A stretch of 63,643 nucleotides of DNA, counting the filler, from Rhabdomonas costata (taxonomy: Eukaryota), in assembly GCA_019059605.1 (NCBI GenBank). It is 51 parts of 51 records of this genome, joined end to end, with 100 filler letters (N's around TTAATTAATTAA, not from the genome) between each part and the next. Parts side by side here need not be neighbours in the genome. Positions count along the whole stretch, not along the records: positions 22,500 to 23,652 come from JAHMHO010026164.1; 50 more parts are not named here. One strand, given 5' to 3'. This document shows, piece by piece, positions 22,500 to 58,644 of the stretch. Position numbers and translations under genes: made by a program. The notes beneath the pieces were generated by a model, which was not told where the DNA came from, searched no databases, and saw only the letters and a list, made by a program, of their open reading frames with translations. Each line of letters starts with the position of its first letter. Positions within the stretch are counted from its first letter, which is position 1.

Positions 22500-23652
22500 C
22501 CACGCAGGAAACAAAAGTGCACTTTTGCATCCAAAAACAACACCCCATACCTAAGTAGAGTGTTTTCTTTGGGGTCTAGAGCGTACATTTTGAAGTGTGC
22601 TATGGATGTGGTCTTTTCGATATGCACAAGACTCTTCTGGGTGCTCATTCTCACTACGCTCCCGCAAGCCGTCACCCAGACAACGTTTTCCAAAATACTT
22701 TGAACAACCAAGGTTTTGGCCCCCCTTCCCCCCTTATCAATGTTGGGTAAGACCGTTTTGCTAACCAACATTGAAAAATGAGGGGGGGAGGGGGGGTTGT
22801 TCAATTCCATTATGGAAAACGTTGTCTGAAAATGACTTTTTCGCAACGGCGGATTCCCAGCACCTAAACCTCCCGATTTTACCGCCCCCCACAGGGTGGT
22901 GACACAGAAGCCCACGGCGTCGCTCCGCTCCGTGCTAAACTATGGCGAAAGCACACAAGTAAGGTTGAAAAGAGAGACAGGCATGGACTTAAGTGGCCAT
23001 TTTGCGCCAATCAACACTGAAAGAAGTAAAAATCGGCATTTGGGGGGTTTATCAGAGACAAAATATCCTAAAATAGCCTAAAATGGCCTAAAATAGCCTG
23101 AAAGAGCCTGAAATAAGACCTAAAGACGAGAAACGAGAGTAAAGCGAACATTAAAATGACATAAACGGAAACAACCAGCCCTAATTATTCACTGTATTGC
23201 GTTTTCTTCCTACCAATAACCGATTGGTCACGATGCCCAAACGATGCCCAAGACAATTTCCTCGATACCCAGCACGATGCCCGTTATTTTTGACGATGCC
23301 CAGTATTGTGTAAAGGGTTATAAATAATTAGACCTTTATAATAATGCTGGGCATCGTCAAAATAACGGGCAACGTGGTGGGCATCGTACAAAATGCGTTG
23401 GGCATCGTGCAAAATGAGCTCGGTACCGTGCAAAAACACGCCTAGAATGCCTCACCCATCACACAAACCTGAAAAACCCAACATTAATGCCGCTAAAAGG
23501 CTTTCGACACGTTAAAACTTGCCCTGTAATCTACAATACAGCATAGTTGTGTTGAAAAGCGCGCAGAAAGCCTCAAAACACACCACGCAGGAAACAAAAG
23601 TGCACTTTTGCATCCAAAAACAACACCCCATACCTAAGTAGAGTGTTTTCTT
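22500..23652. other. Circular or tandem 1083-bp non-coding unit with two long hairpins, an iteron array and phased A-tracts
   Basis: 22500-22569 is identical to 23583-23652 (70-bp terminal overlap); hairpins at 22677-22828 and ~23231-23410; 10-bp repeats at 23061-23125. Confidence 0.85.
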
Positions 23653-38333: not shown

Positions 38334-38784
38334 CTGCGGCATACACAAACCGTAGGGGATCCCAACCACACTCACGCGGACTTGGGCTGACGCCAAACGC
38401 CCCGATTACAACCATTGCCTGACTGCGCACTACTTTTGAGGTTAAAAAGCAATCCGGCAAGGCAAAGCTGTTTGGTGGATAGCTCACATACTGACCAATG
38501 CACGCACGTGTGCTCGCAATGCACCCACAAAAATCAGAAAAACGCAGGAGTTGTGCGGATCATTTCAATCACTGTAAACAATGCGCGACCCCATTCACCC
38601 CAAGCACCGGACTCTTTGGAACAGGTTGGGGGGAACGAGGGGGAGGTNNNNNNNNNNNNNNNNNNNNNNNNNNNNNNNNNNNNNNNNNNNNTTAATTAAT
38701 TAANNNNNNNNNNNNNNNNNNNNNNNNNNNNNNNNNNNNNNNNNNNNGTGTTGGTGTGTTTGGGGGTGTGGCGAAGCCGAGTCA

Positions 38785-39897
38785 ATGACTGAAAAGTTGA
38801 AAGTCGCTCTGGAGAAGGCAGAAAAAGATGCATCTGACTGCAAAGCGGCGCGTGACGCGCTGTCCGTTGAACTTGAAGCCGCTGTAAAACAGACCCTGGA
38901 AGAGGTGGAGCAGCACAGGGTCACCCGAGACATGCTCTCAGCAAAGCTCGAAGCCTCTTTGATGAAAGCCGAGGAGGAAGCTCGACAATACAAAGTATCC
39001 CGTGACGAACTTTTGGTAGAGTGGGAAGCAGCGATGGTGAAAGCTGGCGAGGAGATTCTTCAACTTAAGGCGGTTCGGGACTTACTTTCCGCAGAATTGG
39101 AATCTACTCTGCTAACGGCCGAAGTGGAAGCGGAAAAGTGGCAATCTGTTGAAGCTTTTCTTGTGGAAAAACTGAGTGATGCAATGCGTGAAGTTGAAAA
39201 GCTGAATCGGTGCTGTGGCGAGGCCGATTTAGCAAGTGAGGACTTGAAGGCCGCGCTGGAGAAAGCAGAAAAAGATGCATCTGACTGCAAAGCGGCTCGC
39301 GACGCGTTATCCACCAAGCTGGAAGCTGCTGTCAAAATGTCAGAGGAGGAAATGCGGAAGCACAGGGCCGCTCAAGATTCCCTTTCCGCGGAGTTGGAAG
39401 CCGCGTCAGTGAGTGCCGAGGTTGAAGCTGAAAAGCGGAAATCTGTCGAAGCAATGTTCATGGAAAGATTGAGCTCAGCCCTTTGCGATGTGGACAAGCA
39501 AAAAGCTCATCTCGCAGAAGCGCAGCTTCTGATGTCTGCAGAGGTGGAATCAATGCAGAGAAAGCTTTCGGAGGAAGTTGAAAAGCACAGAGCTGCTGAG
39601 ACAATTCTTCAAACGAAATTGGAAGCCCTGTCAATTGCAAGTGCCGAACAGGCGCTGCGCAGCGAGGAGGCCTCTCAGGAGGCGCTTTCCGCTGTCATAG
39701 AAGCAGCTGCTAAGAAGGCACAGGAGGACGCACTACAGCACAAGGCCGTGCAGGACACGCTTTCCGCGAAGCTAGAAGCTGCCTTGAAAATAGCGGGGTC
39801 CTCCACTCCCGTCACCGACACCCGCAAGCCGGAGACCCATTCTTCTTCTTGCTCCAATTGTAAACTGGTAACCTCCGAACTTGAAAGAACCAAAACA
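38785..39897 (+). CDS. Long coiled-coil protein with internal repeats, partial
   Basis: Open for more than 370 codons, E/A/K/L-rich; LKxALEKAEKDASDCKAARDALS occurs twice and an (R/Q)DxLSxxLEA(A) sub-repeat recurs. Confidence 0.85.
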
Positions 39898-57494: not shown

Positions 57495-58644
57495 TATTTA
57501 GATGTGTAGCTCTTGTAATTGCTGTATAAATCCATCGTCTATCTGTATATGCAATATTCGCATCAAAAATTGTATATGGTTTAGTAATCGTTAATCCTTG
57601 TGTTGAATGACACGTGAAACAGTGCGGCAAACTTATATATTTCAATTGATTATAAGTGATATACATTTCTTTATTTTCATACACACTTTTAATTTTGAAC
57701 AGATATTTATTATCTGAATAATGTTCTAAAATCTGATACAGATAATTTGTATATAATTGTGCTTTTTTTCTTTTTAGGGGTTGTCTACAAATAATGTACT
57801 GTCCAACATGATATTTAAAATCATATGTTTTGTTATTGTGCTCGTGTTTAAATTCAATGTATTCATCTGGTACAACTACTAAATTATCTTGAACATGTTT
57901 ATTTATTTTGTATGCTCTTGATCTAAAATAGGATATATTGTCATGAGTAATTAGCTTAGAGATATTACTAATAATTTTAAAATCATACTTTTTGAAAATA
58001 TCAATAATATTTAGTGTATTATCGAAAATATCTTTCTTAAGATTCTTGAGTTTTTCTCTATCTTCTGGATCTTTCAAACGTTTATTCATTCGTAACATGA
58101 TATGAGCATCAAACATACTCATAATGCAATCAACAAGATACTTATTTTTCGATCTAATGTTATTAAAATCAAAATTCAACGGTAAATTTTGCGCATCATC
58201 ACCATTAGCAATGATTTTTTTATCTGGGTGTGCCTTGATAAAGCGTTGAATACTTGAAAGTAATTGAGGATCATATAATAAAATTTCTTCAAAGACAACA
58301 CAAACAAAATTAGATACATCAAACACTTTACGTTTTGAATTTTTACCATTAATATTAAGTGACATTAGATTATGTAATGTGATAGCCATATGACCTTTAA
58401 TAATTAATTCTTGACATAGTTGATTATAAGGTGTAACATACAATATATTTTCCCCAGCTAGTGATGAAGCATAACTTTTTCCTCCTCCTGCATATTCACT
58501 CCATATCATAATTAGTTGATGTTTATTTAAAATATCTTTTATTTCAATATTATATGCTTCTGGATCTTCAAAGAAATGTTCTTCAGATTTAAGATAATAT
58601 GTACTTACAACTCTAGAATTATATTTAACGTCATCTACATATTG
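57495..58644 (-). CDS. Superfamily 1 (RecD/PIF1-like) helicase, intronless and AT-rich, likely from a Polinton-like or other DNA virus; partial at both ends
   Basis: The whole contig is one open frame: Walker A AGGGKS, Walker B variant VVFEEI, motif III GDDAQN, motif V TCHSTQGLTI, motif VI YTAITRA. GC is far below that of the host contigs. Confidence 0.9.

Follow-up and report, generated by a model that had tools for sequence, protein, structure and literature searches.

The contig at positions 22500–23652 raises a simple question: is it one turn of a small circle that replicates without any genes of its own, or one period of a tandem chromosomal repeat? It belongs to a window of 63,643 bases, the whole stretch of DNA analysed here, which consists of 51 unrelated contigs of 1145–1153 bp separated by N/TTAATTAATTAA spacers. 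The element is one whole contig (1153 bp, 44.8% G+C). Its ends are identical over 70 nt (100%, spacing 1083), giving a unit of 1083 bp plus 70 bp read twice, first at 22500–22569 and again at 23583–23652. A contig of this kind is cyclic, derived from either a circle or a head-to-tail array. The earlier note on this DNA had read it as a self-overlapping 1083-bp unit, and this description holds; a self-overlap is also seen in two metagenomic relatives, L043 and L134.

Matching ends occur in 1 of the 51 contigs of the window, solely at 22500–23652, and this cycle closes cleanly in the assembly, without variant breaks. The other 50 contigs (1145–1152 bp) have neither sequence, conserved region nor iterons in common with the unit. 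Our impression of the window as a whole is of gene-poor, repeat-rich DNA of eukaryotic type. Snap-back inverted repeats (96–100%) terminate 7 of its 51 contigs, which suggests that the input DNA was amplified or prone to chimera formation.

The unit carries a mirrored array of a 10-nt iteron, ACGATGCCCA, around an AT-rich centre, and what had been described there from the sequence is confirmed by site counts, by the extent of the palindrome and by the composition of its spacer. At ≤1 mismatch, the iteron occurs 11 times across the 63.6 kb of the window, and 7 of these copies fall in 23230–23408 (4 on the plus and 3 on the minus strand). By chance the window as a whole should hold 3.19 ± 1.84, and none of 100 shuffles reaches 11. 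When ≤2 mismatches are allowed, five left-arm and four right-arm sites are recognised, a layout for which we use the term 2×5 dyad (~180 bp). The left arm (23230–23302, plus strand) contains five sites of ACGATGCCCA type, which begin at 23230, 23241, 23262, 23274 and 23293 and are spaced 11-21-12-19. The right arm (23348–23408, minus strand) mirrors it with four sites starting at 23348, 23366, 23378 and 23399, and a decaying 21-bp period continues to 23435. The 45-nt spacer between the arms (23303–23347) is 76% A+T and possesses a short central stem (TAAAGG...CCTTTA); it is a putative unwinding element. Arms and spacer form a 172-nt imperfect palindrome (79%) with a folding energy of −67.8 kcal/mol (z = −13.2 versus shuffles; z = −7.9 for the L043 counterpart). 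As in iteron-type theta plasmids, sites spaced 11, 21 and 12 nt apart and a 21-bp period stand beside the AT-rich segment; here the sites form inverted sets, not one direct array.

A second palindrome, module B (22677–22828, plus strand), is a multi-stem hairpin of ~150 nt, previously noted as a multi-segment structure of that size. Its outer arms match over 20 nt at 95%. Folded as single-stranded DNA, it reaches −51.9 kcal/mol (z = −9.7), a value equalled by none of 200 shuffles, and the L043 counterpart (positions 343–516 of that contig) has z = −8.4; the module is precisely absent from L134. The left arm contains a C6TTC6 tract (22720–22733, plus strand) and the right arm a G7AG7 tract (22782–22796, plus strand), the latter present in L043 as G7AAG7. 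Judging by its letters, the G7AG7 tract could form a quadruplex.

Smaller features accompany the two palindromes. A perfect 16-nt palindrome, CAAAAGTGCACTTTTG (22513–22528, and again at 23596–23611 inside the overlap), extends to 26 nt at 85%. It had been pointed out before and is real, though only slightly unusual, as 36 of 2000 mononucleotide shuffles give one at least as long; in the colinear alignment it is not present in L043. The phased A-tracts reported earlier are likewise found, as an array of AAAATAGCCT with period 10 and 5.6 copies (23060–23115, plus strand), which is not conserved in L043 by the same alignment. A "GAGCGGAGCGA mini-hairpin" had also been claimed. Its letters are present on the minus strand (22920–22930), but they form a direct pentamer repeat (GAGCG-GAGCG) with no self-complementarity, and no inverted repeat was found there; this is the only exception among the seven features described in the earlier note, the other six being real. 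The stable mini-hairpin motif GCGAAAGC (22945–22952) was considered and set aside as not significant: the window has 4 copies in all, one of them here. Two segments of the unit are A-rich, with an AT skew of +0.27 to +0.35.

Relatives were sought in metagenome contigs, where a pattern of three closely spaced exact iterons returned 106 loci, and in viral contigs, where a two-iteron pattern returned 37. True relatives, as judged by blastn, are 2 of these 143 loci, L043 and L134, both metagenomic; the remaining 141 have nothing in common with the unit past the 10-mer, and most of them are tandem repeats of other kinds. Variants sharing the iteron hairpin had been suggested earlier as a check on the reading of this DNA, and the metagenomes thus contain two, both cyclic. 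In L043 (1302 bp), positions 1–251 equal 1052–1302 at 99.2%, a 251-nt self-overlap that gives a unit of 1051 bp. In L134 (1021 bp), positions 1–130 equal 892–1021, again at 99.2%, a 130-nt self-overlap with a unit of 891 bp. The three contigs come from three assemblies and start at different points of the cycle, which argues that the cyclic topology is a property of the DNA rather than the accident of one assembly. As far as sequences can tell, relatives that wrap round and keep the iteron palindrome mean that the element is neither an artefact nor a one-off, and that a family exists. Its architecture appears in no further contig among the 106 metagenome hits, and the scan yielded one sequence class only.

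Once both are rotated to begin at the same point, the unit aligns colinearly with L043 throughout, with similar unit length and module order. Their identity is 115/176 columns (65%) in the hairpin and 154/230 columns (67%) in the iteron module, against 301/712 columns (42%) outside the modules; 10 shuffled partners, used as a control, gave a mean of 28% and a maximum of 36%. These values indicate that the whole unit is homologous with L043 and that the two palindromes are its most constrained parts. The left-arm sites of L043, at 911, 922, 943, 955 and 974, repeat the 11-21-12-19 spacing of the unit, and the starts of the inner sites lie 55 and 56 nt apart in the two lineages. The sequences separating the sites have changed, as has the central loop. 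We regard this conserved site layout as the most telling point of the comparison. Double changes are seen in 3 of the 77 pairs of the iteron palindrome, and several pairs are broken; among the 54 predicted pairs of the hairpin, five changes are compensatory, two are one-sided and none breaks a pair.

The two metagenomic relatives are 99.3–100% identical to each other apart from L043 350–509, which is missing in L134. In other words, L134 is L043 minus the hairpin interior: the outermost 7 bp of each arm are retained and joined as a 14-bp perfect palindrome. The deletion measures 160 nt and is not a multiple of three. Since this natural variant lacks exactly the hairpin, the module appears to be accessory and dispensable.

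Coding capacity was examined on the circularised unit with the standard code and tables 4, 6, 10 and 11. The longest stop-to-stop frame is 149 aa in the standard code. When the 35 frames of 25 aa or more were all compared with L043 by tblastn, no conserved protein frame was found: the matches are confined to the two modules, where they involve several frames on both strands and include stop codons. The earlier statement that the unit has no credible ORF is therefore upheld. Nor do the iterons accompany a rep gene, as neither the unit nor L043 contains a conserved ORF. The window has no Rfam match at gathering score, and the E-value mode gives only sub-threshold look-alikes of microRNA hairpins, which lie on the two palindromes. 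A tRNA scan found none, and promoter-like and terminator-like sites occur at chance level. None of the 30 longest frames of the window reaches the Pfam cut-off, and a search for homologues of a 278-aa window frame found none.

We tentatively hypothesize that 22500–23652 represents a single complete turn of a gene-less, ~1.1-kb DNA, a member of a previously undescribed family and an origin-only replicon dependent on an initiator supplied in trans. Several observations support this reading: the 70-nt identical ends, two relatives that wrap round, colinear units, conserved palindromes and spacing, and stems kept through double changes. It is weakened by the searches, which found no helper, no further contig of the family, no match in viral contigs and no known origin motif. 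Another point against it is that the remaining assembly looks repeat-rich and eukaryotic, and 1-kb satellites are common in such DNA.

The most serious competitor is a structured tandem satellite, i.e. head-to-tail chromosomal repeats of 1083 bp whose dyad and hairpin would bind proteins or adopt non-B-DNA forms, perhaps at a centromere. We consider this explanation possible, and only somewhat less likely than the replicon. An exact end overlap of k-mer size arises equally from arrays, the unit is non-coding with bent A-tract DNA, and the surrounding assembly is nearly devoid of recognisable genes, as the Pfam result above illustrates. The overlapping copies, moreover, differ by 2 bases within L043 and by 1 base within L134, as expected of adjacent copies in an array, although variants in a population of circles would look the same. 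On the other hand, unit length, module order and the exact iteron spacing have all persisted in two lineages whose identity outside the modules has dropped to 42%, which would be unusual for satellites under concerted evolution. Flanking sequence is present in none of the three family contigs, all of which consist of the unit alone, and the cycle in this assembly is free of variant breaks.

If the element is a replicon, its initiator should be encoded somewhere else. The unit, L043 and the origin alone were compared by blastn with PLSDB (72,556 plasmids) and INPHARED (50,697 phages), giving either nothing or chance matches of 20–35 nt inside unrelated genes. A bacterial or phage contaminant, named earlier as a source that would undo the replicon reading, thus finds no match beyond chance level in either database. 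Among 185,579 prokaryote genomes (one per species), nothing exceeds chance-level or iteron-only matches. In viral contigs, the double-iteron 22-mer and 21-mer patterns, the inner iteron pair and the G-tract hairpin pattern have no hits, and the hairpin-end patterns have none in viral or genome contigs. The 21-mer occurs at six loci in genome contigs, all of them matching at the level of the iteron only; in the one genome searched, that behind L145, the pattern is confined to the L145 contig. No Rep-encoding contig with these iterons is present in the viral, metagenome, genome, plasmid or phage collections, as far as exact patterns, which may miss variants, can reveal.

Several candidates among the scanned loci were rejected. 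The 37 viral two-iteron loci are unrelated to the unit by blastn. So are 104 of the 106 metagenome loci, many of them tandem repeats with periods divisible by 3 and others non-coding arrays of 13–35 bp. L054 and L090 also have mirrored sites, but their repeats are different. Arrays of 22–23 bp that resemble plasmid iterons were considered as helpers: L041 and L074 adjoin chromosomal genes (uvrB, pheS and a glycosyl hydrolase), and the tested ORFs of L088 and L028 have no Pfam match. Literature searches with the letters of the iteron returned primers only, and the element is described in no paper found by our searches.

Another idea is that a single-stranded DNA replicon gave rise to the unit as its non-coding satellite or as a defective component, the replicon being, for instance, a CRESS virus, a rolling-circle plasmid or a filamentous-phage-like element. 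The iterons would then be a Rep-binding site and the hairpin a complementary-strand origin or packaging signal. The size of ~1 kb, the lack of an ORF, the A-rich segment and an 11-bp tandem pair among the iterons all agree with it. Single-strand origins are dispensable, and the long hairpin, missing from L134, resembles them in this respect. Begomoviruses do have non-coding satellites that carry iterons and an A-rich region (PMC4756297). Nevertheless, we think this reading very unlikely: the CRESS nonanucleotide consensus is found on neither strand of the unit or L043, the central stem loop is not conserved between the two, the sites form a symmetric dyad instead of a one-sided array, and a Rep-bearing relative is absent from the viral contigs, phages and plasmids searched.

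A protist organellar minicircle, either of kinetoplastid type (with guide RNAs) or an "empty" one of dinoflagellate plastid type, would share with the unit the ~1-kb length, cyclic form, non-coding nature and bent DNA. AT-rich cores of dinoflagellate minicircles also carry inverted and direct repeats (PMC2665238). The earlier note leaned on the kinetoplast analogy, and this part of it is not supported. The 12-nt universal minicircle sequence is absent: its best match has 3 mismatches out of 12 in the unit, and L043 offers none with fewer than 4. The CSB-1 core has no match, and the A-tracts are not conserved in L043. In both organellar systems the circles share one core, whereas none of the other 50 contigs shares the conserved region of the unit and the metagenome scan found a single class. 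We suppose that de Bruijn assemblies would often be interrupted at a core shared by many minicircles, whereas 22500–23652 closed cleanly. Dinoflagellate circles are moreover 2–3 kb long (PMC2665238) against 1083 bp for the unit. Spliced-leader motifs of euglenids and dinoflagellates have no window matches at ≤3 mismatches, which is weak evidence in 58 kb. The mitochondrial DNA of Euglena gracilis is made of heterogeneous linear fragments, not minicircles (PMC4700960), and a euglenid mitochondrial minicircle is without precedent in that description. The "probable euglenid" of the earlier note gains no support from these results. Altogether, an organellar minicircle of either type seems very unlikely.

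Artefacts of assembly or amplification, or contamination from reagents, are scarcely credible: snap-back inverted repeats do end 7 of the 51 window contigs, but a diverged colinear relative is carried by independent metagenome contigs, the palindromes of the unit are internal, imperfect (68–79%) and conserved, in contrast to the 96–100% terminal snap-backs elsewhere, and the plasmid and phage collections contain no match.

We return to the origin-only replicon. What remains of the small non-coding replicon proposed in the earlier note is its cyclic and non-coding character and an origin-like iteron palindrome, kept in both L043 and L134; the analogy with kinetoplast DNA finds no support. We infer the origin function, the reliance on a trans-acting initiator and the circularity itself. 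In the mechanism we envisage, the element would exist as a small circle with cis-acting replication signals alone. As nothing is encoded, the initiator would have to come from elsewhere, and its source may be the host nucleus, an organelle, a bacterium, or a helper plasmid or virus. A sequence-specific protein would bind the ten ACGATGCCCA sites, arranged as two mirror-image sets of five. Because sites within these mirrored sets are mostly one or two helical turns apart, two initiator/helicase assemblies could load head to head and open the 45-bp AT-rich spacer, making the dyad a bidirectional replication origin. Cruciform extrusion of the iteron palindrome is a further possibility. The hairpin of ~150 nt might serve as an accessory single-strand signal, acting in complementary-strand priming, in transcription stop at the G-run with primer formation, or in packaging.

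Going a step further, and with slightly more reserve, we speculate that these elements may be the first described family of gene-less, origin-only mini-replicons of ~0.9–1.1 kb, in which a captured initiator recognises the fixed 2×5 ACGATGCCCA array and the G/C-tract hairpin is an optional single-strand or priming signal. Were this so, they would rank among the smallest natural DNA replicons and would persist in microbial communities, possibly in a protist or an organelle.

The consequences differ between the two leading explanations. If the element is a circle, it would be a natural replicon cut down to its cis signals with a precisely conserved initiator-binding layout, and nature would already have carried out a deletion experiment in the pair of forms that have or lack the hairpin. 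It would then offer a handle on the initiator protein and on the persistence of minimal parasitic DNAs. Because gene-based virus and plasmid finders discard gene-less contigs, more members of the class may exist than have been counted. If the element is a satellite, it is an ordinary repeat with an unusual degree of structure, and its site array would point to a DNA-binding protein of chromosomal function.

Comparison with known systems places the putative replicon near several of them. Kinetoplast minicircles are alike in being cyclic, ~1 kb long, bent and free of protein genes; they differ in that the unit has neither the universal minicircle sequence nor the conserved sequence blocks, and the other 50 contigs do not form a set of classes with a conserved region in common. 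In polyomavirus and papillomavirus origins, bound by large T and E1, and in herpesvirus oriS and oriL, inverted initiator sites flank an AT-rich centre inside a palindrome. The resemblance of the unit to these palindromic double-stranded DNA virus origins is one of design only, as its sites have another sequence, are more numerous (2×5) and have no linked viral genes.

Rolling-circle plasmids possess a double-strand origin with 11-bp direct repeats and a single-strand origin hairpin of ~150 nt, to which the 11-bp tandem site pair and the long dispensable hairpin of the unit can be compared. However, the unit lacks a rep gene, a recognisable nick site and a PLSDB match, and its sites are mirror-symmetric. 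For the proposed role of the hairpin G-run in primer formation, the nearest parallel is human mitochondrial CSB II. It has a long G-run interrupted by one A, which the run at 22782–22796 resembles, a likeness that we treat as a lead only; in the unit, unlike CSB II, the hairpin pairs its G-run with a C-run. The CSB II G-run forms a quadruplex, stops transcription and makes a replication primer in human mitochondria (PMC3488243).

Among organellar DNAs, dinoflagellate plastid minicircles are small and conserve a non-coding core that is AT-rich and full of repeats (PMC2665238). Theirs are 2–3 kb long, with a core common to many circles (PMC2665238), in contrast to the 1083 bp and the single class found here. 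Begomovirus deltasatellites are small, circular and gene-less, with helper-type iterons, an A-rich stretch and dependence on the initiator of a helper (PMC4756297, PMC4958995), all of which the unit resembles, its own circular form and helper dependence being presumed. They have a stem-loop nonanucleotide and one-sided iterons of 5–6 nt, whereas the unit has no nonanucleotide and ten 10-nt sites in a dyad, a comparison made by description only.

The circular plasmids of plant mitochondria are small organellar circles to which the unit can also be likened, and together with origin-only petite mtDNA they are known examples of gene-less, helper-dependent small circles. Satellite-type small plasmids are another (PMC6713099). 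The element would thus belong to a kind already known, and what is distinctive here is the very regular dyad origin together with a natural pair of forms with and without the hairpin.

The smaller of two metagenome relatives of the 1.1-kb element, L134 (unit of 891 bp), lacks module B, the approximately 150-nt hairpin that lies at 22677–22828 in the element and has its counterpart at positions 343–516 of the other relative, L043 (unit of 1051 bp). Comparison of L134 300–330 with this counterpart reveals that exactly 7 bp of each outer hairpin arm are left, and the two remnants abut to form a 14-bp perfect palindrome. This remnant is the kind of symmetric footprint that excision, or a centre deletion, of a long palindrome is expected to leave. 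L134 is a naturally occurring deletion mutant of module B.

Pattern scans for the iteron matched several further contigs. L145, a non-coding-looking contig of 1277 bp binned in a Flavobacteriaceae MAG, carries, in its segments 545–958 and 1104–1260, five AACGATGCCC sites on one strand (545, 641, 653, 664 and 949) and four GCGAAAG repeats. It has the iteron core in common with the 1.1-kb element; beyond this core the two show no alignable sequence, and L145 contains no dyad. Within its genome the iteron pattern is confined to this contig. L145 could be a distant element with the same putative binding specificity; alternatively, the likeness may be due to chance. Arrays of 22-bp direct repeats containing TGGGCATCGT occur in the metagenome contigs L041, L049, L057, L074 and L132. 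The two inspected, those of L041 and L074, are intergenic and adjoin chromosomal bacterial genes (uvrB in the former; pheS and a family-10 glycosyl hydrolase in the latter); they are iteron-like, yet no replication gene lies close by.

In seven of the 51 contigs in the window, a snap-back inverted repeat lies no more than 10 nt from one end of the contig (8463–8651, 17333–17392, 27292–27399, 33534–33652, 45006–45061, 57336–57394 and 59750–59891). In the four looked at closely, arms of 34–88 nt with 96–100% identity flank loops of 13–40 nt, and the repeats extend to the last base or stop at most 3 nt short of it. These ends look like fold-back chimeras of amplified DNA or like an effect of the assembler on natural fold-backs. 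If a strand-displacing polymerase was used for amplification, small circles would be enriched in the DNA.

Contig 57495–58644 (G+C 26%, versus about 50% in neighbouring contigs) is spanned by a single open frame of 383 aa on the minus strand. A protein atlas places its product among viral superfamily-1 (PIF1/UvrD-like) helicase clusters (score 0.96) with taxa mostly assigned to Viruses, the top cluster being Preplasmiviricota and the others Uroviricota; no Pfam match reaches its cut-off (UvrD_C_2, 22.9 bits versus 27.4 required). The assembly that holds the 1.1-kb element seems also to include a virus, virophage-like element or phage; no link between the two contigs was found. Another 383-aa frame, on the plus strand, occupies the whole of contig 38748–39897, which has internal repeats of about 216 nt (72%). 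Glu, Ala and Leu are abundant in the encoded protein, which looks on reading like a candidate coiled coil and matches no Pfam family above cut-off.

The mini-hairpin proposed in the earlier note (minus strand, around 22920) turned out to be a direct pentamer repeat at 22920–22930. The motif GCGAAAGC is located 25 nt downstream of it, at 22945–22952 on the plus strand. With one copy in the 1.1-kb element and four across the whole window, its occurrence is not significant by count. L043 carries a 7-nt form at position 599 on the opposite strand. GCGAAAGC is an unusually stable DNA mini-hairpin motif known from some phage origins.
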